DNA of 64,000 nucleotides, taken from IMG/VR virus record IMGVR_UViG_3300044295_000323, positions 897 through 64,896 of that record. One strand, 5' to 3'. The notes under the pieces were generated by a model. That model searched no databases. It worked only from the letters and a program-made list of their open reading frames with translations, and was not told the origin of the DNA. This DNA is from a virus (lineage: Duplodnaviria > Caudoviricetes). Made by a program: the position numbers and the translations under genes. Each line of letters begins with the position of its first letter. Positions within the stretch are counted from its first letter, which is position 1. Below are positions 2,677 through 63,063 of the stretch, one piece after another.

Positions 2677-3763
2677 GGTGATCGATCCTCGGTTGGAACG
2701 TGTCTTGGTCAGGCTGCTGTCCTTCCCAGCACATGCCCATATAGGGGCACGCGTAGCCCCAGCCATACTTCAAACAAGCGTCAGACGACCGCTCGACCAG
2801 CCGGCCCAGCAGCGTCTGATATTCCTGGGAGTCGGCGCCGTAGCTCTTGGCACACTCGCTCAGCTGCGCCAGCTTGTCGGCCCACTTGATCTCCGCATCG
2901 ACGGTGGCGTCCTTCGTTTGCAGTAGCTGATTGGGCGGCGGATACAGCGGGCCCGTGGTGCAGAACTGATCCTCGATATCTGTTCCCAGCCAGTCGAAGA
3001 ACTCCGCGTCGTTCCAATGGTAGAGATAATACTTGGCGCTACCGGCCCCCGGGTACTTCTTATGCACGATGCCGCCCTTTGCCCACGCCCGGGTCCACGC
3101 TGAGCCCCAACCTGAGCCGTCCTTCTCGTTCTTGCCAATCAAGAGTCCCTCGTACTGGATGCCCAGCACGGGCTCCTTGGTGCGCTCCACTAGCGCCTGA
3201 ACGTAGAGATGAGTCTGATCGCTGTTGCGATACCGATCCACCCAGTTCGCATCCAAGGAACCAATGGTCTTGAAGTCCACAATCAGCAGGTGCCCGTCGC
3301 TCTTGCGGCGCCAGATCTGGTCCATTCGCAGTGACTGGGCGACCATGGGATGCATCGACCACTGCCACTCCTGTTCGGACGACACGCGCTCGAAGTCCTG
3401 CGAAAGCTGGGTCCAGCGATGTTGCATCCAGCCCTTGACGGCCCGGCGAATTACGGTCTTCCACACGGTCTGCCGCGCTTCGTCCAGGCCCAAAGGTTCC
3501 GGCATAAAGGGCTGCTGTGTCAAGAGCCACGCTTCCCAGTCTTGGCCCTGGATTGCCAAGTCGAGGGCGCCATGGATGAGCTGGCCCCTCACCTTGACAA
3601 ACCCCGCATCCTCCTGGTCATCGCGTGGGCTAATACCGCCGACCTGATCGTCCAAGTTGTATTCGGGGTGTAGTTGATGATAGCCACGGTACCGCTTCAT
3701 CTCGCACAGCTTGCGAGTCGCCACAGCTGACCGGCTGATAAGAATGGGTGCGCTTTTAGCCAC
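2663..3763 (-). CDS. Cas4-like / RecB-family PD-(D/E)XK exonuclease
   Basis: GQLIHGAL, LRMDQIW, IVDFKT, QTHLYV; N-terminal Cys plus C-terminal C-x8-CPYxxxC Fe-S-type cluster; GTG start with SD GAGG. Confidence 0.8.
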   Translation of the reverse strand: MAKSAPILISRSAVATRKLCEMKRYRGYHQLHPEYNLDDQVGGISPRDDQEDAGFVKVRGQLIHGALDLAIQGQDWEAWLLTQQPFMPEPLGLDEARQTVWKTVIRRAVKGWMQHRWTQLSQDFERVSSEQEWQWSMHPMVAQSLRMDQIWRRKSDGHLLIVDFKTIGSLDANWVDRYRNSDQTHLYVQALVERTKEPVLGIQYEGLLIGKNEKDGSGWGSAWTRAWAKGGIVHKKYPGAGSAKYYLYHWNDAEFFDWLGTDIEDQFCTTGPLYPPPNQLLQTKDATVDAEIKWADKLAQLSECAKSYGADSQEYQTLLGRLVERSSDACLKYGWGYACPYMGMCWEGQQPDQDTFQPRIDHHDTE

Positions 3764-14961: not shown

Positions 14962-16257
14962 CTACTTCTCCTCGTGGATCGAGAAGGGGACGTGCTCGCC
15001 GTAGCCGGGCACGACCTGGGACGAGACGCACCACACCACGGGCACATCCACCGGACTGCTCGTGCTGAAGTCCGTGTAGCCATCCGTCAGGCAGACGATC
15101 ACCTCGACGTCTTGCAGCTTCTTCGCAATCCACCGGAAGCCCGCTTCCATATCGGTGCCACCGCCGGAGTAGAACTCCAGCTTCACCTCGTCGCCCTGCG
15201 CCGGCACGAACTCCAGGTGCTTCTGGACCTGGGTGTCCACATAGAGGACATGCACCTTGCTGGGGTTGCACTGCTCAATGATGCGTGCCATGTGGCCGGC
15301 GTAGTGCCGCAGTTCGATCTCGGAGATCGAGCCCGACACGTCGATCTGCAGGCAGATCTCGCCCATCATGGGCGTCTTGCCCACCCACGGCAGGTAGTGC
15401 TCGGTGTAGCGACGGTTGCGCTTGGCCCACGTGGACTCTGACCGGGCGAACGAGGTCATGTAGCGTTCGAGCTTCTCGTACCACGGCACCTTAGACTCGA
15501 TCAGTTCGGCCGCCCACTTGCCAATGGCACCGGGCAGCTTGCCCTGCATCTTGGCCGTCTGGGTGGCCTGCGCGATAGCGACCTTCATCTCGGCCTCCTG
15601 CTGCTTGGCCTGATCGGCCGTCATCGGGCCGCCCTTCTGCACCAGGTCACGGCCCACCCCGCCGATGGCCTGCCCGTGTCCGGGGCACTGGCAGGGTTGC
15701 CCACCCTTGCCGTGCTTGTGCTGCTTGGACTTCGACTTGCCCTGGCCCTGCTTGGACTGCTGTTGGCCCTGGCCCTGACCATCTTGCCCGCCATCGCCGT
15801 CCTGGCCTCCGCCCTGCTGCTGGTCGCCCACTTCGCCGCCGCACTGGGCGCACTTCACGGGCGGCAGTTCGTTGTAGATCTGGTCGGTCGTCTTGTCCTT
15901 GCTGCCCGGCATGTCGATGCCGCCCTCGATCATCTTGCCGATGCCGTCCTGCTTGAGCAAGTCGTTGATGAACGCATCGCCGGCGATGTTCCACTTCAGC
16001 TGGTGCCGATGGCCGAGACGTCCGGCGTGCTGGCACACCACGTGCATGACCTCATGGGCGAGGAGGAAGATCACTTCTTCCACGTCCATGTTCTCGATGA
16101 ACTTGGGGTTGTAGTAGATCTGTCCCCACTGATCGACGGCCGCCGTCGGGCACCACGGTTCGGTGACGGCGACGAGGGGACGTCTCAGCAAGATCGAGGC
16201 GAAGAACGGGTGCTGAAACACCATGTGCGCCTTAGCGCGTTCGAGAACTGTTGCCAT
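14962..16257 (-). CDS. metallopeptidase + VWA domain protein (DUF2201-like)
   Basis: HEVMH zincin motif, Gly/Gln linker, MIDAS DVSGS, GGGTD, LTDGY. Confidence 0.85.
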   Translation of the reverse strand: MATVLERAKAHMVFQHPFFASILLRRPLVAVTEPWCPTAAVDQWGQIYYNPKFIENMDVEEVIFLLAHEVMHVVCQHAGRLGHRHQLKWNIAGDAFINDLLKQDGIGKMIEGGIDMPGSKDKTTDQIYNELPPVKCAQCGGEVGDQQQGGGQDGDGGQDGQGQGQQQSKQGQGKSKSKQHKHGKGGQPCQCPGHGQAIGGVGRDLVQKGGPMTADQAKQQEAEMKVAIAQATQTAKMQGKLPGAIGKWAAELIESKVPWYEKLERYMTSFARSESTWAKRNRRYTEHYLPWVGKTPMMGEICLQIDVSGSISEIELRHYAGHMARIIEQCNPSKVHVLYVDTQVQKHLEFVPAQGDEVKLEFYSGGGTDMEAGFRWIAKKLQDVEVIVCLTDGYTDFSTSSPVDVPVVWCVSSQVVPGYGEHVPFSIHEEK

Positions 16258-16311
16258 TGGATTACGCTCCTTCCTGAACACTGACGTTGTTGTTATTCAC
16301 GTTTCCCACTG

Positions 16312-16497: not shown

Positions 16498-16897
16498 GCG
16501 TGACTCCTTTCTTCTGTGTAGCCGATGCTACAGGCTCAAACTCGCCGGTCAACTTGAACACCGTCATGATCGCCACCACGTCTTCATCGGTGCGGCAGGC
16601 GACGTTCTTGGTCCCAGTACCGACATGATCAACAAGTCGAAGGACCCACCGGCGCCCAGTTCGTGAACCTTCCACTGGGCCTAGTACTCCTGGAGAATAG
16701 TCACTACTCCAGGTACGGAACTCGTCCGCCGTGGTGATGAAGATCCCCAGCTTTATATCGTTTTGCCGGCGATCACCCGGTTCTCTGTAGATCTGCCACC
16801 AGTCCCTAGCAACTGGACCGGGGGAGGTCAGGGGTACCGGAATCGGTACCCCTGAGTTGGTCGTCCGAACGATGCCATCTGGATTAGAAGATGACAT
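16484..16897 (-). CDS. early protein with helix-KLTG motif
   Basis: TDEDVVAIMTVFKLTGEF near the C-terminus. Confidence 0.6.
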   Translation of the reverse strand: MSSSNPDGIVRTTNSGVPIPVPLTSPGPVARDWWQIYREPGDRRQNDIKLGIFITTADEFRTWSSDYSPGVLGPVEGSRTGRRWVLRLVDHVGTGTKNVACRTDEDVVAIMTVFKLTGEFEPVASATQKKGVTRVVE

Positions 16898-17909
16898 CGG
16901 AGTTCTTCACCGTCCAGTCGATGAAGGCCTTGTTAGAGCGGAGCTTCTTGTCCCGCACCAGCGCGTCCTTCACGCACAGCACGCTGAATTCCTTGGGCAT
17001 CCGCGCCATGTAGTCGAGGACGAGGTTAAAGTTGGCCGGCGTGGCCTTGTTCGCCAACGCACCCGAGATGGCGTACTGTGTCGCCGGGTCGGTCGGGACC
17101 TTGGCCTTCTGCGGATTCTTCAACACCTCGTCCAAGTCCGGGAGGTTCATGTAGATGCGGCGGAAGCCGATGTACTCGGCGGCCGCACCCTCGCCCACCT
17201 CGCCCGCCACGTTGCCCATGTAGCAGGCTTCGTCGAGTGTGTCCGGAATCAGGCTGACCTTCTCCCAGCTACGGGGCGTCGGATTGCTGCTGCGGTTCGG
17301 GTCGAAGTCGAACAGCAGGTTCGGCTTGAAGCGCAGGAACTGGATCATGTCGGTGGGCAGGCCGTTCGGCTGGGCGAAGCCCTCAATCCAGTCGTCCAGG
17401 TTCACGTCGAAGTGGAGCATGCGGACGCGGTTGCCAAGCTTCGTCGACAGGCGATTGGCGCCCGACTTGTCCTCAGTGCGGTTGCCCGTGCAGACCACGT
17501 AAAGTTCGTCCGTGAGCTGCAGGTCGCCGACCCGCTTCTCCAACAGCAGGCCCGAGAGAACGTTCTGCACCGGCATTGTGCTGTCAGTGAACTCGTCCAA
17601 GATCAGGCTCGCCGGCCCCGTCCCCTTGCGGATGTTGTAGAGGATGGACGGCGGCACCCAACGCACCGACTCGCCACTCAGCTCCGGCAGCCCGAGAAAG
17701 TCGCACGTGTCGAGGTGGCTCGGGTGCATGAACAACTGGCGCTCCTTGGGAATCGCCTTGCCGTCCGACGCCACGAGTTCCTTGATCGCGTCCTTGGCCA
17801 CGCTCGTCTTGCCACCGCCGGGCGCGCCGGTGATGAGGAAGCGGACTTCGTGACCACGGGGAGCCGCGAACTGGGCGGCGAGGGACTTCTTGATTTGAGT
17901 GTAGCGCAT
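16884..17909 (-). CDS. MoxR-like AAA+ ATPase
   Basis: Walker A GAPGGGKT, Walker B LILDEF, TGNR sensor, LGNR, PTPRSW; VWA partner downstream. Confidence 0.85.
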   Translation of the reverse strand: MRYTQIKKSLAAQFAAPRGHEVRFLITGAPGGGKTSVAKDAIKELVASDGKAIPKERQLFMHPSHLDTCDFLGLPELSGESVRWVPPSILYNIRKGTGPASLILDEFTDSTMPVQNVLSGLLLEKRVGDLQLTDELYVVCTGNRTEDKSGANRLSTKLGNRVRMLHFDVNLDDWIEGFAQPNGLPTDMIQFLRFKPNLLFDFDPNRSSNPTPRSWEKVSLIPDTLDEACYMGNVAGEVGEGAAAEYIGFRRIYMNLPDLDEVLKNPQKAKVPTDPATQYAISGALANKATPANFNLVLDYMARMPKEFSVLCVKDALVRDKKLRSNKAFIDWTVKNSDVIF

Positions 17910-32078: not shown

Positions 32079-33119
32079 ATGTCAGTGACAAACGTCGTTA
32101 CGGCCCCTGATTCGATTCAGCCAGCGACCATCGACTTTCAGGCCCTCCGGGCAAAAGCGATGGAGCATCCAGCGGGAAATGAAGTGGAAGCGGTTGCATC
32201 ACCCGAACCCACCCCGGCGCCCGCTGTTAGTGATCCGGTAGCCCAGAGCACTCCCCCGGAGCAGGCTCCTCAGGCAGTAGACGCGGTAGCCCAGGCCAAA
32301 ATCCTGGAACTCAGCGACACGGACCAGATTCGAGTCAAAGTTGATGGCAAGGAAGAGATCGTCAGCGCGAAGGACTATCGCGATGGCATCTCACGAGAAG
32401 CCGTTTTCACCAAGCGTATGCAGACGCTGGCCGAGCAGCGGCGTGAAGCCGAAGCTCAGTTAGCCGCGCAGTACGCACAAGTGCAGCGAGAAGCAGAAGC
32501 GATCGCGTTGGCCAAACAGCAGTTTGCCGCGCAGTTCGACGCTCTGCGAACTCCAGCGTCTCAGTCCGTAGCTCCGCAGACAGCGCCCCGTGCGCTGGAC
32601 CCGCAGGAGCTGGCCACTCTGGGTGATGTAAATTCCACGATCGAACAGAAGCTCGAAGCGATTCGCAACGAGCAGAAGTCGCAGCAAGAGGCGTTCGTAC
32701 GAGCGCTTGGCGAGGCGAGCCAGCAGGTTCAGACGCAGGCCCAGCTGCAGCGAGACACGATTGATTTTACGAATCACCTGCAATCGGTGATGAGTAAGCC
32801 TGAGTACCAGGTGTTGAATCGCGTGAGCCCGTTTGCAGAGGAGATTGTTCGGCAGAAGGTCGCCGCGATGGAGCCCCGCTCCATGGCAGAAGCGAAGGAC
32901 TTCGCCGACACGTATGTCCGGGGCTGGTATCAGGACGTGACGGCTGCGATGGTGGAATCGGCTAAACGGCAAGAGGTCGCAAAGGCCCAGGCCAGACTAG
33001 AACCCCCACAGGGTTCGGCACCCCCGCCAGTTGCGCAATTCAAGCCCGGCGATGCGTTCCGCAAGGACGGAAAGTTCGATTGGGCGGCTCTTCGAGCCCG
33101 CGCTGAGGGGATGCTCTAG
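32079..33119 (+). CDS. capsid scaffolding protein
   Basis: RVKVDGKEEIVS...FTKRMQTLAEQRR scaffold pattern, coiled coil, precedes MCP. Confidence 0.75.
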   Translation: MSVTNVVTAPDSIQPATIDFQALRAKAMEHPAGNEVEAVASPEPTPAPAVSDPVAQSTPPEQAPQAVDAVAQAKILELSDTDQIRVKVDGKEEIVSAKDYRDGISREAVFTKRMQTLAEQRREAEAQLAAQYAQVQREAEAIALAKQQFAAQFDALRTPASQSVAPQTAPRALDPQELATLGDVNSTIEQKLEAIRNEQKSQQEAFVRALGEASQQVQTQAQLQRDTIDFTNHLQSVMSKPEYQVLNRVSPFAEEIVRQKVAAMEPRSMAEAKDFADTYVRGWYQDVTAAMVESAKRQEVAKAQARLEPPQGSAPPPVAQFKPGDAFRKDGKFDWAALRARAEGML

Positions 33120-33179: not shown

Positions 33180-34415
33180 ATGGCATTCGATTACACGGCA
33201 GCGACTCCTATTCTGAAGGAAGTCTACCTGCCGGCGTTGCAGGAACTCCTGAACAACGCCACTCCGCTCCTGTCCGCGATTGAGAAGGATATTACCCCGG
33301 TTGAGGGTGGTAACTTCGTCATCGCGATCCACCGTACCCGCAACAACGCGGCCGCCATTGGCCGTGCGGAAGGTGGCACGCTCCCGACCGCTGGAACCCA
33401 GGGCTATGCCCGGGCGATCGTGCCGGTGAAGCAGCTCTACTCGCGCATCAACGTGTCGGGTAAGGCAATCGCCAGCACGCGTTCCAACAAGGGTGCCTTC
33501 CTGAAGGCGCTGGAGTCGGAAATGCAGTACGTCATGACCGACACCAAGCGCGGTCTGAACCGTCAGCTCAACGGCGACGGTACGGGCGCTTTGGCGTACT
33601 GGACCGGTGCGGACAACACCACGCCGGCGACCGTGGACGACAACCTGGGCAACGGCACCACGCACCTCCCGGTGGGTAGTGTCACGTGCGACTTGATCGA
33701 TACCGACAACTCCACGAAGAACGGCGACTCGATCGTCATTACGCGTGGCGCGGTGGGTACGTCGACCACGTCGGTCAGCTGGTCGGGCTCGGTGTCGAGC
33801 TCGGGCGACGGTGACTATCTCGTCCTGGAAGATACCCTGGGCTACGAGATGACCGGTATCCAGGCTGTCATCAACGACGCGGACCCGGCGCTTCTGAGCG
33901 GCGGTCTCCACGGCCTGACCGTGGCGTCCTATCCTGATTGGAAGGCCGTCGTGATGGGTTCGGATTCTTCGCAGGAAGACCTGACCTTCGTCAAGATCCA
34001 GCAGCTCATCTCGCGCATCGTCAACGAATCGGCGTGCGACGAGAGCGACCTGAAGATGTTCCACTGCCACCCGGCGGTGCGCGACACCTACGTCAAGCTG
34101 TGCCAGGACGAGCGCGTTTTCTATAACGTCATGAAGCTCGATGGCGGCTGGGAAGCCGTGACCTACAACGGCAAGCCGATCGTGGCGGACAACCAGTGCC
34201 GTCGCAACGCCCTGTTCCTGATCAATCCGTCGAGCCTCTCGCTGATGCAGATGGCCCCGCTGGACTTCATGGACAAGGACGGCTCGGTGTTCTACCGCAT
34301 GTCGGGCGGTGACGTCGACGCGTACGGCGCCACGGCGTTCGTGTACCAGGAACTTGGTTGCAAGGTTCGTAATCAGAACGGCGTGATCAAGGGAATTAGG
34401 GAGGTCTGGTCATAG
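33180..34415 (+). CDS. major capsid protein (HK97 fold)
   Basis: 411 aa; ILKEVY, AEGGTLP, NRQLNGDGTG, GIQAVI, YNGKPIVAD; strongly biased codon usage. Confidence 0.85.
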   Translation: MAFDYTAATPILKEVYLPALQELLNNATPLLSAIEKDITPVEGGNFVIAIHRTRNNAAAIGRAEGGTLPTAGTQGYARAIVPVKQLYSRINVSGKAIASTRSNKGAFLKALESEMQYVMTDTKRGLNRQLNGDGTGALAYWTGADNTTPATVDDNLGNGTTHLPVGSVTCDLIDTDNSTKNGDSIVITRGAVGTSTTSVSWSGSVSSSGDGDYLVLEDTLGYEMTGIQAVINDADPALLSGGLHGLTVASYPDWKAVVMGSDSSQEDLTFVKIQQLISRIVNESACDESDLKMFHCHPAVRDTYVKLCQDERVFYNVMKLDGGWEAVTYNGKPIVADNQCRRNALFLINPSSLSLMQMAPLDFMDKDGSVFYRMSGGDVDAYGATAFVYQELGCKVRNQNGVIKGIREVWS

Positions 34416-34460: not shown

Positions 34461-35051
34461 GTGAAGAAAACATCAAATCTTTCTCCAGATCAACTCATTG
34501 AGCTTCGGGCCAAGCGTGCAGCCTACATGCGTAGGTACAACGCAAGGCCCGAGGCCAAACTCCGAAATAAAGAACGCAATCTACGATACAAGTCACAAAG
34601 GCGGGAAAAGTTAGCAGCACAAGAAAGTGCCCGCTATTATGCGAACCACGAAAAGGCTCTAGAGTACAGACGCCAATATCGACATTCCCTAAGTCCAGAA
34701 GAAAAAGCCAGGCAACAACAGATCCGAAAAGAGTGGGCCCAGCAAAATCCTGATCGAGTCGCAGCGTCTTACCAACGACGTAAACACACCGATGCGTATC
34801 GGTATAAGGCCACAGAACAAAAGGGCAAACGTAAAGCTCGGGTTTCTGGAGCGCGTATCGAACGAATCAATTGGCGTCAGGTGTGGTCCACGTTTGACGG
34901 CACGTGCAATCTTTGTAAGAAAGAACTCCGCATCGGAGTTCACACCTACCACTTCGATCACATTGTAGCGTTGAGCCGAGGTGGCGCACACAGCACAGAC
35001 AATCTTCAGATCGTCCACGCAAAGTGCAACCTTTCCAAAAATCGCTACTAA
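34461..35051 (+). CDS. HNH homing endonuclease
   Basis: CNLC...FDHIVALSRGGAHSTDNLQIVHAKCN; AT-richer than flanks. Confidence 0.85.
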   Translation: MKKTSNLSPDQLIELRAKRAAYMRRYNARPEAKLRNKERNLRYKSQRREKLAAQESARYYANHEKALEYRRQYRHSLSPEEKARQQQIRKEWAQQNPDRVAASYQRRKHTDAYRYKATEQKGKRKARVSGARIERINWRQVWSTFDGTCNLCKKELRIGVHTYHFDHIVALSRGGAHSTDNLQIVHAKCNLSKNRY

Positions 35052-55215: not shown

Positions 55216-55244
55216 GAAAGGGCCCTTGCGGGCCCTTTCGTTTT
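55216..55244. terminator. terminator between convergent operons
   Basis: GAAAGGGCCC-TTGC-GGGCCCTTTC-GTTTT. Confidence 0.85.
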
Positions 55245-55975: not shown

Positions 55976-56132
55976 CGTCTGGGTCCGGTTCTAGCAGCTC
56001 CCGCTGCCCTTCTTTAAACGCTTCCCGATAGGTAATCTCATACAGCTCCTTCACTTGATCCTGGATCTTGTGAGGGAGCTTTCTGTTTTTGAGCTCCGTG
56101 AGGAGGGCTTCCAGCAAGAGGGGTGCATTCAT
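55965..56132 (-). CDS. 55-aa hypothetical protein (not in ORF track)
   Basis: MNAPLLLEALLTELKNRKLP...; TAATG overlap with the polymerase stop. Confidence 0.55.
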   Translation of the reverse strand: MNAPLLLEALLTELKNRKLPHKIQDQVKELYEITYREAFKEGQRELLEPDPDDEL

Positions 56133-58702
56133 TACACTTCAACCTTCCGTACCGTCCTCATGCCCCCCGGATTGCCATCTGGAAAGGACCGCTTACTCGG
56201 CTCCGTATCCATCTCGCAATCCGCCCAGTTGTAGCCACGATCAACTTCACAGCCGATCCGTAGACCCCCTAACTCTACCACAGGTCGCGTCAGGGTTTCA
56301 ATCAGGAATTCTGTCGCCTCATCTGCCATAGCTTCTGGAACCTCAAGGAGATAGCCGTCATGAACGGTGACGTTCGCCGGCATGTAGTCTGCCCACTTGG
56401 ATGTCCCAAGGATGAGCAAGGTGTCGCGGCAGAACGAGCCCGCGCAATTCTGTGGAATAAAGGCTAGGGCCCGTTTGGAGTCCTGTCCGAGTTTGAGCTT
56501 CGGCTTCCCACTGTCGTCATAGAGAATGTTGCCGGCGTCATCGCGCTTGAACGTGTACACGTCGTGGAAGCGGTGACGATAACCCCAGGGACTCTGAAGT
56601 ACCCCTTCGCGCTTGGCTTGTTCGCGGGTACGTTCTTGCCACGCCTCCAGGGCGGGCATGACCGCAAAGATCTTCTTCTGAATGGCCTTTGCGGAGCCGA
56701 TCGTGGGGAACAACTCCGGGTTAGTCATGTGCATCAGATAGGGATCTCCACCGTAGAGCAGGAGATATACGGCCGTCTTGAACTGGTTATAGAGCCCCTT
56801 GTGTTCGTCTTTGGTGCGCTTGATGTTCTCGTCCGTAAACGCCCAGCCTAGTTCCTGACAACACAGATAGGCGTGGATCGACTTCTTAGCTACCGCCGTG
56901 AAGTTGGCGTCCCCAATCAACTCGCCTGTCACCACCGCTTCAATCGACGTGGAGTCAGCTTGGACGAAGACGTGGCCAGGACGAGCCACAATTTGGCGGC
57001 GCGCCTTCTTTGCCCACTTGTTGGACTCGCGTTTGCCTACGTTCTGCAAATTGTAGTTACGGGATGCGAGGCGCCACGTGGACGGCGCATTCACATACTG
57101 GGTATGAATTAGTCCAAGATCATCTGGCACATACATATAGGTGCTCAGGGTCTTGGCCACCTGGCTGTATTTCAGGACTTCCCCATAAATCGGATGCTGG
57201 CTTCCAAATTGCTTAGCAAGTCGTGCGAGATGATTCTTGTCCATCGTTGCCGACTTCGTCTTGTGGTTCCAGCCGAGCGGGTGCTTGAAGTACTTCGCGT
57301 ACGTTTGGAGCTGATCCGACGAGCCGAGGTTGAATTCCTGGAGGACATCATAGACTTCTTTCTCGCCCCTGATCACCTGGGTGACGGCGCCGTGACACGG
57401 ATTCTTCTTGCCGCCCTTCAAGTGCTCGGACTTGTTGGGCATGGGCTGCTGACACTTCGAGCAGATCTTGATGTCTGCCGGCACCATCACGCGGTCAAAC
57501 TCGCCCTCAGTGGGCATCGTCGACACACGCTCCCGTGGCTGGAGCTCACGCGGCACCATCTTCGCTGCCTCACTACGCAGCTTGGCCTTCTCGCGCTCCA
57601 TCTCGTCCCGCAGCAGCGTCTGATAAGGGATGTCGATACGGTTGCCCCGAAGACCCGCCTTGCGCAGGATCGGCATCAGTTGAGTGACGTGACGCTCGAA
57701 CAGCGGCCACTGGCCGTAATGCTCAAGATCCCGCCGAATCCCCAGGAAGTTTTGCAACGCCACGTCCGCGTCCATCGCCGCGTATCGGGCGAAGTTGACA
57801 TCATTCAAGTGTTTCCACGGCATGACGTTGGTGTAGAACGATGAGACCCATTCGAGGCCCTTGGGCAGGTCGGACTCCAGGATGTGCCAAGCGTCCTGCG
57901 CGTCCCAAATGGTTCCTCGAACTGGGAATCCCTCTGCTTCTAGACGAGGGACGTCGAAGGCAAGACAGTTCCATCCCACCTTTGGGTGGTCGCTGGCCAG
58001 GAGTGCCCGGATGCCGTCCAGGAATTCACGATTCCATGGTACAGAGGCTCCAGTGTGTGGCTGATTGGAGAACGCGATACGAAGCATCGCCCCTTCTGGG
58101 ACGCCTTCCTGATCATCGTCCTCAGCTCGGAGGCCCTTGGGCGTGTACTGGGTTTCGATGTCGAACGAGATGGGGTCTTTGGCGTCGAGGACTTTTTGGA
58201 CATAGTCATTCCATTCCTTGGGAGTCTTGGGGTCAAGCAGGTAGTTGTCACGATAGCGTGTGACGACGCCGCCGTTCTTCACGGCGTGTTGAATGTCACG
58301 GACCCAGACAGACTGGAACCGCGCTGGTTTGTTCAAGAGCTGGGAGCCCGAACCCTGGCCGTGACGAGCCACCAGGTCGTGGATACGCATCGTGGAGATC
58401 ACCGTAGCGGGCGACCCGGGCCAGCTCATCACAGCTTGAGTGCGGCCGCGCCACCGGAAGAGATCGCTATTTTGGGTCACCAACGTCATGGCCATCTCGC
58501 CCATGGTCACGATTGTGTGAACGTCGTTGGCCACGGGGCGCACCCCGGGCTGCAGGCGCCACGACTCCTGGGGAATCGTCACGATGGTCTCGGGGTTCTC
58601 AATGCCGGCCCGCTGCCACATGCGCGTCCACATGGCGCCCTTGGTGTCGTCTTGAGGGCACACGACGACAATGCCCGGATCCCACAGCATTAGCGATGGC
58701 AC
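56132..58702 (-). CDS. polA: family A DNA polymerase with degenerate N-terminal UDG-like domain and 3'-5' exonuclease
   Basis: Exo I FDIET, Exo II WNCLAFD, Exo III YAAMDAD; TWRLAS..NLQN; motif A ADSTSIE, motif B FKTAVYLLLYG, motif C VHDG. Confidence 0.9.
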   Translation of the reverse strand: MPSLMLWDPGIVVVCPQDDTKGAMWTRMWQRAGIENPETIVTIPQESWRLQPGVRPVANDVHTIVTMGEMAMTLVTQNSDLFRWRGRTQAVMSWPGSPATVISTMRIHDLVARHGQGSGSQLLNKPARFQSVWVRDIQHAVKNGGVVTRYRDNYLLDPKTPKEWNDYVQKVLDAKDPISFDIETQYTPKGLRAEDDDQEGVPEGAMLRIAFSNQPHTGASVPWNREFLDGIRALLASDHPKVGWNCLAFDVPRLEAEGFPVRGTIWDAQDAWHILESDLPKGLEWVSSFYTNVMPWKHLNDVNFARYAAMDADVALQNFLGIRRDLEHYGQWPLFERHVTQLMPILRKAGLRGNRIDIPYQTLLRDEMEREKAKLRSEAAKMVPRELQPRERVSTMPTEGEFDRVMVPADIKICSKCQQPMPNKSEHLKGGKKNPCHGAVTQVIRGEKEVYDVLQEFNLGSSDQLQTYAKYFKHPLGWNHKTKSATMDKNHLARLAKQFGSQHPIYGEVLKYSQVAKTLSTYMYVPDDLGLIHTQYVNAPSTWRLASRNYNLQNVGKRESNKWAKKARRQIVARPGHVFVQADSTSIEAVVTGELIGDANFTAVAKKSIHAYLCCQELGWAFTDENIKRTKDEHKGLYNQFKTAVYLLLYGGDPYLMHMTNPELFPTIGSAKAIQKKIFAVMPALEAWQERTREQAKREGVLQSPWGYRHRFHDVYTFKRDDAGNILYDDSGKPKLKLGQDSKRALAFIPQNCAGSFCRDTLLILGTSKWADYMPANVTVHDGYLLEVPEAMADEATEFLIETLTRPVVELGGLRIGCEVDRGYNWADCEMDTEPSKRSFPDGNPGGMRTVRKVEV

Positions 58703-58983
58703 TCCTTTGGAAAGCGTTGATAGTGATAGTGATCGGCCCCGGACTCTTCCCGCGTCACGACTAGGAAGTCGTAATCACTAGGTTCCACAATATAAAGTGG
58801 GATGCCATGGAAGTTGCGGACGTAGGGAGCCACATCTTTGTGGATAAAGAGGCGCTCCCAGTGTGGAAGCAAGTGCAGGCTGGACTTCAGGGCGATCGAC
58901 TTACTCAGGTCGATCCTCAGGGGGTCACCCCCTTGGAGCTTGAATGCTGTAATTTCGCTCAGCAAGTAGTCGTGATAGGTCAC
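58690..58983 (-). CDS. small protein, A-domain-like paralog family
   Basis: YLLSEITAFKLQGGDPLRIDL...NFHGIPLYIV; start may be 59019. Confidence 0.55.
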   Translation of the reverse strand: MTYHDYLLSEITAFKLQGGDPLRIDLSKSIALKSSLHLLPHWERLFIHKDVAPYVRNFHGIPLYIVEPSDYDFLVVTREESGADHYHYQRFPKECHR

Positions 58984-58984
58984 A

Positions 58985-59272
58985 TTAGCTAGGATGCTCC
59001 AACTCGTCTGGGGTTTCACTCATGTCGTCGAGGCCGATCACGACACGGATGCCCCAGTCGTGGCAGTCGGGCTCCTCAAACACATGGAGCTTCTTGTCCG
59101 GCGTGACCTCGAACATGATGTTCGGAATCTCGATGCCACGAGACCTAACACCCATCTCGTTCAGTAAGATTCGATAGGCTTCCTTGCCAATGTCGACGTA
59201 GTTGATGGGATCGGTGCCCCGAGTGATGGTCGCGGCCGCAACCGCCGTCTTGATCTGTTCGCTAATGGTCAT
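58985..59272 (-). CDS. small protein, A-domain-like paralog family
   Basis: SEQIKTAVAAATITRG..INYVDIGKEAYRILLNE; SD AAGGAG. Confidence 0.6.
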   Translation of the reverse strand: MTISEQIKTAVAAATITRGTDPINYVDIGKEAYRILLNEMGVRSRGIEIPNIMFEVTPDKKLHVFEEPDCHDWGIRVVIGLDDMSETPDELEHPS

Positions 59273-59631
59273 TCGTGGGACTCCTTTGATACACGCTTCC
59301 AGAGTATGCTGCTTTCGTTAAGAGACTTCTTCACCGCCGGAAGATACACGTCCTTAAGGACAGATCGCATCGCAGCATTGTAGTCGATCTCTCGTAGAAC
59401 AAATTCAATAGATGCCTCGTCCTCTAGACTTGGCGCTACTGGGATGCCTTTCCACATCACGAGTTCGTTCTCAATGCAACCTCCGAGTGGAACCTCTTCG
59501 TTGAGCATCCGCGTGTACGCCTGGTACATCTGTGGCGACATCTGGATGGTGAACGGCTTCTCGTTGCCATGAATGAGAATGGCGGCCACGTGGGCCGCCT
59601 TCATCTGGGTCTCTAGTTCGTCTCGTGTCAT
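59269..59631 (-). CDS. A-domain-like protein with C-terminal copy of the capsid N-arm
   Basis: IQMSPQMYQAY...WKGIPV; DYNAAMRSVLKDVYLPAVKKSLN similar to MCP DYTAATPILKEVYLPALQELLN. Confidence 0.65.
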   Translation of the reverse strand: MTRDELETQMKAAHVAAILIHGNEKPFTIQMSPQMYQAYTRMLNEEVPLGGCIENELVMWKGIPVAPSLEDEASIEFVLREIDYNAAMRSVLKDVYLPAVKKSLNESSILWKRVSKESHE

Positions 59632-60071
59632 GCGATCACCAGGGAGATCTCGGTCTTTTCCGTTGACCGCTTCGCCGGATTATATTCGGTGAGGCGGATG
59701 ACCCACCAGTTGCCCCACGGCCAGCGACTAAAGTGGACTTGCGGGAACTCGGAGCGTAGCCAGTTTTGCAGCAGCTCATGACACGCCCAATGAATCTCTA
59801 CGATGCGCTTCGAGCCTGTCAGCCGGTCGCTCACGCGCATCGCCAAGACCTGGTCCTTCAACGCGGCCTTGAATCCCGGGATGTTGATACCCAACTTGAG
59901 GGCTTCCTTGGACGCATCCCCCAGGAGTGACTCCTGGGGGATGATCTCGCGAATCTGCCCCTCCTTGCCTTCCTTGATCAAGCGTTCGCGTTCGGTCTCG
60001 TCCCACTCCAGATCTTCTTCAATGTCTAGGTCAGTGCGTTCCCAGATTCGAACTTCGGGTTCCTTGCCCAT
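59628..60071 (-). CDS. hypothetical protein
   Basis: SD GAGG; ATGA overlap. Confidence 0.6.
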   Translation of the reverse strand: MGKEPEVRIWERTDLDIEEDLEWDETERERLIKEGKEGQIREIIPQESLLGDASKEALKLGINIPGFKAALKDQVLAMRVSDRLTGSKRIVEIHWACHELLQNWLRSEFPQVHFSRWPWGNWWVIRLTEYNPAKRSTEKTEISLVIA

Positions 60072-60079
60072 AGCGCCTC

Positions 60080-61975
60080 TTAGATCTCGCAGAGTCCCCC
60101 GACGCAGGCGAACTCCGAATTAACGGTCGTAATGTCTTGCGTCTCCTGAATGAGATGCAAGTCCAGGGCCGTTGGTAACAGCGCCAGCCGGCGCTCATAT
60201 TCGTCCTTGGTAATCTCTTCGTAGGGCGCCAAGGGATAGATATTGGTATCCTTCGGCAGGAAGCTCAGACCACCAATGGCGTCCCATGACATCCGCAGGA
60301 AGGACGTCACCCCCACCCATTCATCTGGATGGACGTAGATGGTGCAGGAGGGGTTGTGTTCTGTCCAGCATTTCTTCCACATCAGCCAATAGGAGAGCTG
60401 GTCCAGGGCCGACAGTTGATCCCGCACGATGGCTCCATCGGGACTCTTCACCGGGAGCTCCACCACCCACTGTTGGGCCTCCTCTAGTGTGCCTTGGGCG
60501 GTCTCGGGAAATACCGGCAACCCACGGTCTCGAAGATGCAGGCCAATAGGGGAGCGTGCAGCAACACGCAATCGGCGAACGTAATACGGAGCGTACCGAG
60601 CGTGAATACCTGAGCTAGTATCCAGGAATTGAGCACTGTTGCCACTAGGCTTATTGCAAGTAACGGCCGCGCTTGCCGCCACGCCAAGCAAAGCTGCCCA
60701 GCCCTTATTGACTTCGACGGCCACGTCTTTGAGGTGCCCCAAAAGACGAGGTGTAGTATGCGGGTCGCACAAGAGGGGACAATCGCAAGCCCCAGTAATA
60801 TCAACACCGAGCAAGCGTTCCTCGTCACAGTTGGCCTTCCACTCAGGGCTCAAATAGCTGAAGTTAGTCAACGTACTTTGGATCGTCCCCAGAATCGCAG
60901 CCAGGTTGACCTTGTGTTCGAGCGTCTGGGTCGTGTCATCAGGGCGCGCCACTGCGATCGATAGGTTGCAGAACTGACGCGGGCGCAGGATGATCTCCCC
61001 ACAGGGGTTAGTGCCAAAGTCGTCCCGCACGGCCCGTCGTTGAGGGACGGCGCCGTCACGCCGAAACACACCGGGCTCTCCCGTGCCGTTGCCGGCCAGT
61101 TGGGCCATCCACGAAAGGAGATCGCTGTCCTTGACGGGGCCCGTGGCGACCATGCTGTTGTTGGCCATGGCCAGCTCTGGCATCACTTCCCAGAATTTGC
61201 CGTTCTTGGCCGACAGCATCTCCTGATCGTCGGCGTCAAACAGGGCTATTTCGGCCGCTCGTCGTACGCCCCCAACCTGGACAATAGACCCACACATTGT
61301 CGCCAGTCGATGGACGTCAAGCGGGCGCAACGCTTGACCCCGTCGAGCCCGGATGATATCCCAACTTTTATCAAGAAGATCACGGAGGGGCTTAGGCCCT
61401 GAAGCTCGACCACCCTTGGTGTGGAGCCATTCTCCCTCAGGGCGAATCTGCGAATAGTCGTACTGCCGCTTGACCCCATCAAGCGCATCTACGAGCCGCT
61501 GCTTAAACGCGTCAGCCCACCCTTCTGTCGAATCATCAATGACATAGATGTCGTCCGTATGGGAGTCAGTGTCCTTTACTTTGGGCCACTTCTGGATGTG
61601 GACCTTCTCAACCGAGTACCCCACACCAGTGCCTTGCATGAGGATGTACAGCAACTCCGCAAGGTCGCGGGGAGCTTCGAGTACGGTATACGCGCAGTTG
61701 TACGCCCCAACGTTACAGCGGTCGAGCGAAGGGCCCGCCATTTGGACAATCCGCATCGACGGCAATACGTCCCGACGAAGAATCGCATCGTGAAGGTTGG
61801 ACCAGACTTGGCCTGGAATTTTCTTGGCGCCGGGCGCTTTTTGGAGCCACTGAGTGACGCGGGACGTGACTTCGGCCCACGTTTCACGCCGGCTCTTTTC
61901 CGGGATCCACCGCGCATACTTGTCATAAAGGGTTAGCTCCGTAATGAACTCTGCACCTTTGCAATCTCGCTTCAC
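60080..61975 (-). CDS. nrdJ: class II (adenosylcobalamin) ribonucleotide reductase
   Basis: LPSMR, YNCAY, GTGVG, VRRAAEI, GTNPCGEI, KPSGN, C-terminal CVGGLCEI; no beta subunit gene seen. Confidence 0.9.
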   Translation of the reverse strand: MKRDCKGAEFITELTLYDKYARWIPEKSRRETWAEVTSRVTQWLQKAPGAKKIPGQVWSNLHDAILRRDVLPSMRIVQMAGPSLDRCNVGAYNCAYTVLEAPRDLAELLYILMQGTGVGYSVEKVHIQKWPKVKDTDSHTDDIYVIDDSTEGWADAFKQRLVDALDGVKRQYDYSQIRPEGEWLHTKGGRASGPKPLRDLLDKSWDIIRARRGQALRPLDVHRLATMCGSIVQVGGVRRAAEIALFDADDQEMLSAKNGKFWEVMPELAMANNSMVATGPVKDSDLLSWMAQLAGNGTGEPGVFRRDGAVPQRRAVRDDFGTNPCGEIILRPRQFCNLSIAVARPDDTTQTLEHKVNLAAILGTIQSTLTNFSYLSPEWKANCDEERLLGVDITGACDCPLLCDPHTTPRLLGHLKDVAVEVNKGWAALLGVAASAAVTCNKPSGNSAQFLDTSSGIHARYAPYYVRRLRVAARSPIGLHLRDRGLPVFPETAQGTLEEAQQWVVELPVKSPDGAIVRDQLSALDQLSYWLMWKKCWTEHNPSCTIYVHPDEWVGVTSFLRMSWDAIGGLSFLPKDTNIYPLAPYEEITKDEYERRLALLPTALDLHLIQETQDITTVNSEFACVGGLCEI

Positions 61976-62406
61976 TGTCGCACCTTCCCATATCGTCCAC
62001 GGCCCCGACGTTCTCTGTCATCTGCGTTATCGGCGGGGGTTCCTAGTCGCAGATGCGCTGGATTCACACAGCTTGGGTTATCACATGAATGCAAGACATG
62101 CCATTCATTCGGCTCTTGCACGAACAACGTATAAGACACTCTATGCGCTGTTAGACACTGACCTTGAAAAGAAAAATACCCGTACCCTGCCGGATGTTTA
62201 GACGCGTTCCAATTCCAACACATCGAGGTCTTATCAACTTTCTTCAAGAACCGAACGCGTACTTTTTCGAGTGCTTCCGCTGTGTATGGTTTCGCATTCG
62301 CCTTTTGAAAGCGCCGTGTCCACTTCTTGCGATGTGTTCTAACTTTGTCTGGATTCGCCTTGCGCCAACGAGCCGTTCTAGCCCGAGCTGCTTCCTCACG
62401 AGTCAT
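61972..62406 (-). CDS. HNH homing endonuclease
   Basis: CWNW...GYG...AHRVSY...HSCDNPSCVNPAHLRLGT..DN. Confidence 0.85.
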   Translation of the reverse strand: MTREEAARARTARWRKANPDKVRTHRKKWTRRFQKANAKPYTAEALEKVRVRFLKKVDKTSMCWNWNASKHPAGYGYFSFQGQCLTAHRVSYTLFVQEPNEWHVLHSCDNPSCVNPAHLRLGTPADNADDRERRGRGRYGKVRQ

Positions 62407-62419
62407 GCCTATATGATGC

Positions 62420-62460
62420 AAAAGAAGAGGACCAGGTTACGGCGAAGTAACCTGGTCCTC
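62420..62460 (-). terminator. intrinsic terminator
   Basis: 14-bp stem GAGGACCAGGTTAC/GTAACCTGGTCCTC then TTCTTTT. Confidence 0.8.
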
Positions 62461-62761: not shown

Positions 62762-63063
62762 TAGAGCTTCTCCTCGATGTAGCCCGGCGTCCCGCCCGTA
62801 TGGTGTGTGGGCGCCTGGCCTTTCAACTGCTTCTTGTAGTTCCGTATCCAGTCAGCTCGAAGCATCGCCAGCTCTTTGTCGAGCATCTTGACGAACTCTT
62901 GCTCGTCTGCCTTTGCTGCCATCAAGGATGTGTACTGGACGCGTCCGTACATATGAATCACGTTGTTGGTGCCGCTCTCCGTGCTGGTCGTGAGACGATC
63001 AGAGTGAAACACTCTGATCGTCGGCACCATCCCGAGCATGACCATAAAGGTTCGTCTGAGCAT
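62761..63063 (-). CDS. protein with RRxF leader and capsid spine-helix-like segment
   Basis: MLRRTF; YGRVQ...FVKMLDKELAMLRADWIRNYKKQLKG. Confidence 0.6.
   Translation of the reverse strand: MLRRTFMVMLGMVPTIRVFHSDRLTTSTESGTNNVIHMYGRVQYTSLMAAKADEQEFVKMLDKELAMLRADWIRNYKKQLKGQAPTHHTGGTPGYIEEKL

Follow-up and report, generated by a model that had tools for sequence, protein, structure and literature searches.

Why should a small gene lying among the replication genes of a phage of the Caudoviricetes end in a segment that resembles the beginning of that phage's own major capsid protein (MCP)? We asked this of a 64,000-nt stretch of viral DNA, hereafter the window, which comprises bases 897-64896 of the 64,896-bp IMG/VR record IMGVR_UViG_3300044295_000323; the record has direct terminal repeats and is rated complete. 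The gene, P0002 (open reading frame (ORF) 59269-59631, minus strand; 120 aa), sits between genes for a class II ribonucleotide reductase (RNR) and a family A DNA polymerase, has ATGA overlaps with both neighbouring genes and shows coding-like GC contents at the three codon positions (0.58/0.34/0.63). Its product consists of an N-domain (residues 1 to ~80) and a tail (residues 83-117; 59281-59385, minus strand) that resembles the N-arm of the MCP. The MCP itself (P0001, 411 aa; 33180-34415, plus strand) was identified by phrog_14242, major head protein (E = 1.4e-61), and by Pfam SU10_MCP (E = 8.9e-6), and the presumed source of the copy is its residues 4-37 (33189-33290, plus strand), delimited by BLASTP and MCP alignments.

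Pairwise BLASTP of P0002 residues 83-117 with MCP residues 4-37 gave 15 identical and 24 positive positions in 35 columns with one gap (31.6 bits, E = 3e-6). This reproduces exactly the count made by hand in an earlier note on this DNA, and the aligned bases lie inside the interval marked there (59278-59389). The same note had placed the gene about 26 kb from the MCP gene on the opposite strand, and we measured 26.2 kb between the two segments. The Smith-Waterman score of 69 was reached by none of 5000 shuffles of either partner (Gumbel p ~5e-6), and the likeness is thus significant against shuffled sequences. In an all-against-all BLASTP of the 98 crude window genes, P0002 and the MCP form the top non-self pair (database-level E = 5e-4), and by our own scaling the expectation over the whole experiment is ~0.02-0.05, which makes the pair taken alone only marginal. 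A six-frame search of the genome with P0002 matched P0002 itself and the MCP N-terminus (E = 4.1e-4) only. When the same search was run on the 22 records that carry MCP relatives, the MCP N-terminus was matched in 22 of 22, with one other row at E = 6.7.

At the DNA level the tail and the MCP segment share 56 of 102 bases, 13 of 34 third codon positions and the same codon for 8 of the 15 identities. An explanation at the RNA level, in which the two genes would share a 5′ mRNA element, was rejected because the DNA is only 55% identical. P0002 fits only positions 7-37 of phrog_14242 (E = 0.14) and only positions 6-38 of an MCP hidden Markov model (HMM), not either profile at full length. It has no match to scaffold families in Pfam or PHROGs, and the all-against-all BLASTP pairs it with the MCP and not with P0003, the scaffolding protein of the window (32079-33119, plus strand; phrog_3927, E = 4e-4).

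What one pair left marginal was settled by replication in two related phages and by reciprocal profiles, and we accept the N-arm copy as real on these grounds. Through polymerase alignment we gathered loci with related polymerases (17 metagenome and 2 viral). In most of them the RNR gene abuts the polymerase gene or ThyX stands between the two; in some the gap holds one 89-aa ORF. One locus, L055, whose polymerase is 68% identical to that of the window, has the same cluster as the window, namely an orf147 homolog, two 91-aa paralogs and a 95-aa paralog. After its second 91-aa gene, the +1 frame runs on for 39 codons to a stop that overlaps the ATG of the next gene. This tail aligns with window MCP residues 2-39 (score 66, 0/3000 shuffles, p 1.8e-5) and with the P0002 tail (p 2.2e-6). 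Its third-position GC content (GC3) is 0.66 in the +1 frame and 0.32 in the other two frames, and the +1 frame is therefore the coding frame. One gap suffices to align the conceptual 130-aa +1 product with P0002 residues 70-120.

A second locus, L054, in which the C-terminal part of the polymerase is 60% identical, holds a free-standing 58-aa ORF two genes downstream of the polymerase gene. The likeness of this ORF to the MCP sets in at its first residues (score 59, 0/3000 shuffles, p 2.5e-5), and a 93% identical ortholog differs at 4 of the 31 flanking residues and at none of the 27 in the core. The ORF has no relatives in GenBank phages, and the 80-aa ORF upstream of it is unrelated to the N-domain family of P0002. 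The module is thus laid out as an in-frame fusion in the window, in the +1 frame in L055 and as a free-standing ORF in L054; judged from these arrangements, it is separable from the protein that carries it.

An HMM built from the two tails (P0002 and L055) was used to search the 9,260 six-frame peptides (684,547 residues) from all loci. Below E = 0.06 it found only MCP N-termini, at 2.1e-8 to 1e-4 (window MCP 9.5e-6), and the L054 ORF (0.0019). In the opposite direction, an HMM of 12 MCP N-arms gave 49 rows in MCP-length peptides, and outside these only P0002 (7.2e-8), the L055 tail (5.8e-5) and the L054 ORF (0.008), with the next row at E = 4. We regard chance likeness between amphipathic helices as excluded for practical purposes, because the reciprocal searches find each other with a clean gap to the noise. 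What speaks for it is the marginal standing of the original pair after the all-against-all correction and a match of similar strength (30.8 bits) between P0002 and an unrelated giant repeat protein in a search of 1.8 billion proteins. Set against these are the independent replication in L055 and L054, the clean reciprocal profiles and the failure of composition-keeping shuffles ever to reach the N-arm scores, and we give this explanation almost no credence.

A profile search of near-length proteins with the tail module yielded nothing beyond the L054 ORF, the 93% identical ortholog of that ORF and apparent truncated or frameshifted MCP calls. Two 35-aa gene calls, P0009 and P0010, on contigs of 11,347 and 2,156 bases, are made up wholly of MCP-N-arm-like sequence, and one of them has T for the invariant E14; both may be truncated calls of MCP genes or additional modules that stand alone.

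The N-arm is almost invariant in 23 close MCPs. Across 12 MCPs down to 27% identity, no variation occurs at L12, E14, V15, Y16 or L24, and almost none at K13 or N25. Of these seven signature residues, P0002 and the L055 tail keep six each and L054 keeps K, E, L and N. K13, L24 and N25 are present in all three modules, and L12, V15 and Y16 also in P0002 and L055. The E14 position is D in P0002 and S in L055, and E is kept in L054. Positions 27-28, AT or DT in the 12 aligned MCPs, are SS in each of the three modules. P0002 and L055 have in common a one-residue insertion relative to the MCP, and each module retains some MCP-identical residues that the others have lost. We note that the 15 identities of P0002 fall on 6 of 9 conserved positions, an overlap that is not significant by itself (p 0.12).

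Selection on the copies is indicated because residues invariant in the MCP family are kept although third codon positions are randomised and the DNA is ~55% identical. The claim in the earlier note that the DNA had diverged while the core was kept holds, and the recurrence in two related phages adds to it. On present sequence evidence, the P0002 tail is a genuine, selected copy of the MCP N-arm. We infer that the three N-arm modules go back to a single ancient acquisition of the 5′ end of an MCP gene and then diverged with the same core constrained.

The frame change in L055 lies at a sequence, CTT TGA C (L055:3590-3622, junction 3607-3613), that resembles a known recoding site. CTTTGAC stands exactly at the frame junction and occurs once per strand in the 10.5-kb locus. 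Like the +1 frameshift site of prfB, which encodes release factor 2 (RF2), as given in the consulted part of PMC12421855, it has a slippery CTT, the RF2-specific stop TGA and a following C, with GAC as the first +1 codon. Unlike prfB, its upstream hexamer, CGGGTG, placed three bases upstream and thus at the right spacing, matches the AGGGGG consensus at 4 of 6 positions. The CTTTGAC sequence could equally have arisen by a one-base insertion in the T run.

The N-arm is not the only part of the MCP that appears to have been copied. MCP residues 83-156 (33426-33647, plus strand) are predicted to hold a strand and a long helix at 101-123. We take this helix, which follows a predicted E-loop hairpin, to be the spine helix, an assignment made from the secondary structure of a model with a predicted local distance difference test (pLDDT) score of 33. 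When the full-length MCP family HMM was run against the 98 window proteins, two proteins stood out, P0002 (E = 1.4e-6) and P0020 (E = 9.6e-5), with the next at E = 0.35. P0020 (62761-63063, minus strand; 100 aa) resembles MCP 83-156 over its residues 35-100 (62764-62961) by BLASTP, HMM and hhalign: 18 of 74 positions are identical (BLASTP E = 3e-5), hhalign with the MCP family gives E = 2.3e-4 at a probability of 44%, and 1 of 2000 shuffles reaches the score (p 3.4e-5). The evidence for P0020 is weaker than for the other copies; its phmmer matches to MCPs have E values of 0.28-2.4, yet all are MCPs in the same register.

The first 91-aa paralog of L055, here 91a, provides a further instance. 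Its last 32 residues align without gaps to MCP 99-130, with 12 identical and 22 positive positions (E = 6e-6, p 2e-5). F107, E114 and D121, which are invariant in the MCP family, are kept in both P0020 and 91a, and P0020 against 91a gives no alignment. Similarity to the MCP is absent from the seven remaining small proteins of the slot (p 0.10-0.72; ORF95 p 0.18). P0020 fits the MCP HMM at positions 85-132 only. Since P0002 and P0020 each fit only a short stretch of the MCP profile, they are, by this comparison, not capsid proteins. The earlier note had described the N-arm copy alone; that part stands, and it had missed both the spine-helix copies in P0020 and 91a and the separability of the module.

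The N-domain of P0002 belongs to a family of small proteins that includes ORF95 (58985-59272, minus strand), the L055 paralogs and the 89-aa ORF of L048. An HMM of six members built without P0002 ranks P0002 as the best non-member among the 98 window proteins (E = 1.1e-4), and one built from the four members outside the window finds P0002 (E = 0.0038) and ORF95 (E = 0.013), with the next at 0.82. Pairwise BLASTP of P0002 with ORF95 gives E = 0.017. ORF109 (58690-59019, minus strand) is only a tentative member, because the HMM of the non-window members fails to recover it. ORF95 and ORF109 are both without the MCP-like tail. A profile search with the N-domain family returned only the members themselves and close relatives.

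The earlier note had called this N-domain A-domain-like. By sequence the claim finds no support: the comparison gives p 0.13, and hhalign of the small-protein family against the MCP family is not significant. By structure it is weakly supported through recurrent low-Z matches to HK97-fold shells. The AlphaFold model of P0002 (7-row alignment) has a pLDDT of 60.8 and is fair for residues 1-47. A VIA-align comparison with 48,161 chains placed the MCP of phage Che8 at rank 1 (Z 4.7, root-mean-square deviation 4.2, 77 aligned) and that of CUS-3 at rank 3 (Z 4.1), with all Z below 5. Capsid or encapsulin shells make up 10 of the 20 listed rows that cover model residues 1 to ~78, and the matched ranges of the shell chains are presumably A-domains. 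With the P0002 model, Foldseek searches of PDB and BFVD gave no match that reached E = 0.001, all E values being 0.33 or worse; in a second look at the Foldseek list, HK97-fold shells made up 5 of 10 rows, and 2 of 5 Atlas structure rows were MCP-family clusters. None of the 10 Atlas rows for ORF95 is of the MCP type, and the structural likeness of P0002 is thus not reproduced in its paralog. The further statement that the order of parts is permuted relative to the MCP depends on this A-domain likeness, for which sequence comparison gives no support. A PDB profile search with the MCP itself matched 7f38_A only, over MCP positions 216-359 only.

The gene is present without differences in contigs of runs from three other studies. 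Coverage extends over the whole stretch in X2, to 59808 in X4, and over 59279-59522 and 59552-59863 in X5; the comparison uses contigs, in which rare variants would not show. All 32 substitutions and 2 insertions listed for X2 fall in 58707-58890 (ORF109) and 59664-59676 (orf147). In two other studies ORF109 carries 28 substitutions and 3 inserted bases within 184 bases (58707-58890), and the ~770 bases on the P0002 side are identical. ORF109 is thus hypervariable between samples in its 3′ two thirds, and its variant protein is P0016; the patch looks like a mosaic or fast-evolving stretch in the paralog that adjoins P0002. We found no relatives of P0002 in GenBank phages, IMG/VR, 5.8 billion near-length proteins or metagenome contigs, and none of P0016 or P0020 in IMG/VR. 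The sole P0002 match among 1.84 billion representatives, the giant repeat protein mentioned above, is a 5,929-aa adhesin-like protein whose score is summed over 8 weak repeats (30.8 bits being its best high-scoring segment pair), and we discarded it as spurious.

We hypothesize that the tails are stand-ins in trans for the MCP's own helices. P0002 would be an accessory protein expressed from the same terminator-bracketed block as the RNR and DNA polymerase genes. Its C-terminal 35-40 residues would descend from the 5′ end of an MCP gene, and selection would maintain them as an N-arm helix freed from the MCP; a sister set (P0020 in the window, 91a in L055) would bear a copy of the spine-helix region. 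The N-arm copy may dock where the MCP's N-arm docks or is read, on the spine-helix/P-domain face or the scaffold C-terminus, and the spine-helix copy may dock on the MCP N-arm. The small N-domains would thereby be tethered to the inner face of assembling capsids, and the small proteins would be loaded into the head or assembly would be modulated. We propose docking because the copies match exactly two inner helices, in keeping with the structural logic of the consulted part of PMC5644958, and because the scaffold C-terminus is conserved here: P0003 has a conserved C-terminal motif with G331, D334, W335, L338, R341 and A342 invariant in 8 sequences. We consider docking on the MCP or scaffold at this inner N-arm/spine-helix site the best of the explanations weighed here and hold it tentatively. 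The earlier note had proposed a mimic of the scaffold/assembly interface or of an epitope sensed by the host, and these two proposals are still the foremost candidates.

Several observations weigh against it. The genes lie in the DNA-metabolism block rather than the structural module, which is unusual for assembly factors. They are dispensable: the sole complete relative, G015 (MCP 82% identical), is without the module, and the RNR gene directly adjoins the polymerase gene in most polymerase relatives. The free-standing 58-aa module of L054 has no cargo to tether. The P0002 tail is modelled as a long helix with a pLDDT of only 33-49, and the MCP model (pLDDT 33.4) is too poor to place the N-arm. 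The L055 and L054 modules were compared with MCPs other than those of their own phages. Binding is purely proposed. The data show the likeness in sequence, its recurrence, which residues are kept, the genomic setting and the patchy occurrence; that the tail descends from the MCP gene, that it is helical, that it binds at any step and what would follow from this is what we infer. A complex prediction of the MCP, scaffold residues 230-346 and P0002 as partner, which scored 0.00 in two runs made without controls, counts on neither side. A more specific form of the docking hypothesis is that these are portable capsid-derived tags on small early proteins, maybe A-domain-like, that plug into the MCP and are loaded into the head for the next host, with the L055 tag added through a prfB-type +1 frameshift in a ratio that would follow the RF2 of the host. 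We regard this as improbable speculation.

An accessory function would suit the position, the dispensability and the patchy occurrence of the genes just as well, and the same features can be read as those of a decoy. In this explanation the small proteins, made before or alongside the MCP, show its inner helices to a host factor that senses unassembled MCP (a defence sensor, a protease or a chaperone) and occupy it without triggering it. Their place suits such a role, a variable accessory slot of the RNR-polymerase operon that is patchy among relatives and near homing endonucleases and ORFans, next to a paralog, ORF109, that is hypervariable between samples while its flanks are identical. The free-standing L054 peptide also fits a decoy better than a tether. 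In addition, the modules depart from the MCP at the invariant E14 (2 of 3 modules) and at positions 27-28 (3 of 3), and such departures could split binding from activation. To our knowledge there is no sensor of the MCP N-arm or spine helix, which counts against a decoy, as does the timing, which is judged from gene position alone. We also found no phage-encoded capsid-fragment decoy in the parts of the literature consulted. In the consulted part of an editorial (PMC13728456), by contrast, MCPs appear as recurrent triggers of defence systems, e.g., CapRelSJ46, Thoeris and CBASS. Taken together, a decoy seems to us unlikely, though worth serious consideration.

The tails could instead be relics, pieces of an MCP gene captured by illegitimate recombination in a region prone to it and kept as a tolerated or generic amphipathic helix, e.g., for oligomerisation, with no link to the capsid. 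Homing endonucleases are present in the window and in the L055 region, the number of small ORFs in the RNR-polymerase gap ranges from 0 to 4 among relatives, the L055 tail is out of frame, and P0002 and P0020 are without relatives in very large databases, all of which is compatible with such an origin. However, the residues that were kept are MCP-family invariants despite the randomised third codon positions, and the three N-arm modules are still open frames with coding-type GC3 although the polymerases are only 60-68% identical. The unchanged 27-residue core of the L054 ortholog, beside its altered flanks, and the independent retention of two different MCP helices also argue against relics, and we think this explanation rather improbable.

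The genes of the window fall into two blocks. The structural module occupies the plus strand from ~26 to 55 kb and includes a P22-like portal, the scaffolding protein, the MCP and an SU10-type adaptor. The minus strand from 55 to 64 kb holds the family A DNA polymerase (56132-58702, minus strand; PF00476, E = 7.2e-27), the class II RNR (60080-61975, minus strand; PF02867 and PF21995), an HNH endonuclease and small ORFs. Among these, orf147 (59628-60071, minus strand) is a conserved neighbour with a 48% identical homolog at the same position in L055. The run HNH-RNR-orf147-P0002-ORF95-ORF109-pol is bracketed by two terminator-like hairpins, both of them consensus matches only: one with a 14-bp stem upstream of the run (62427-62460, minus strand) and a bidirectional one at the junction with the structural module (55216-55239, both strands).

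The sequencing runs that hold the region are freshwater metagenomes. MCP relatives of 78-86% identity were found on 22 IMG/VR contigs, and distant ones (27-29% identity; tblastn) carry MCP annotations in actinophages, namely those of Arthrobacter and Microbacterium. In a feature-based Atlas comparison, most neighbours of ORF95 come from Actinomycetota. The short contig L072 (RFSE01000339.1, 3,749 bases), binned in a metagenome-assembled genome labelled 'Proteobacteria bacterium', encodes an MCP 84% identical to that of the window; this placement is probably a binning artefact and no pointer to the host.

HNH endonuclease genes lie directly behind the MCP gene (34461-35051) and upstream of the RNR gene (61972-62421) in the window, and between the RNR gene and the small-ORF cluster in L055 (2206-2694). 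Fragment transfer by one mobile endonuclease is unsupported, as the three enzymes are mutually unrelated. A small zinc-ribbon protein (CxxC...CxxC) is encoded next to P0020 (62573-62761), and also at L048:105-287, upstream of the RNR gene in L048-type relatives. The RNR has 631 aa in the window and 870-900 aa in several relatives (L055:2-2218; L058, L060, L062, L063); that of L055 contains a block of ~200 extra residues, suggestive of an intein, at a point where the window RNR is uninterrupted. In the left arm, a DUF2201 metallopeptidase/VWA-like protein is encoded near an AAA_5 ATPase (14962-16281 and 16884-17909).

The closest parallel among known systems is CpmB of SaPI1, which copies the C-terminal helix of the phage 80alpha scaffolding protein and whose binding and effect were demonstrated by structure and genetics, according to the consulted part of PMC5644958. 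As described there, CpmB is likewise a small accessory protein; its C-terminal helix imitates one side of the capsid-scaffold interface and thereby reaches the MCP inner face at the N-arm. Unlike CpmB, which copies the scaffold side, the proteins described here would copy the MCP's own helices, those of the N-arm and the spine region. CpmB serves a satellite that hijacks a helper phage, whereas these are the phage's own genes among its replication genes, and CpmB was established by structure and genetics, whereas the copies are known here from their sequences.

Short terminal peptides are also known to send unrelated proteins into an HK97-fold shell, as encapsulin cargo-loading peptides and the capsid-targeting sequence of T4 internal proteins do. 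Unlike the tails of P0002 and P0020, those tags are not derived from the shell protein, and the L054 module stands alone. The T4 vertex protein gp24 is a full-length MCP paralog of gp23. It resembles our case as an intragenomic duplication of capsid protein sequence and differs in extent: here only 30-70-residue segments are involved, which lie within small non-structural proteins or are appended to them, at a distance from the structural module. In the capsid-sensing systems covered by the consulted part of PMC13728456, immunity is often triggered by the MCP, and the phage response includes small early accessory proteins, a setting similar to ours; the countermeasures given there are sponges, binders and escape mutations, not copies of capsid fragments. 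We found no description of phage proteins bearing copies of their own MCP's helices in the parts of the literature consulted.

Interface mimicry at the HK97-fold inner face is known from the scaffold side, in satellites that redirect helper capsids; copies made from the MCP side are not described in the literature consulted. Searching a phage proteome with the profile of its own MCP can reveal such modules. Should the tails bind the MCP or scaffold, nature would have supplied very short peptides that reach the inside of the capsid, of use for understanding assembly control and for loading cargo. Should they be decoys, a host sensor would be implied that recognises the best-conserved inner helices of the MCP before assembly. 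Either reading offers short defined peptides with clear partners.

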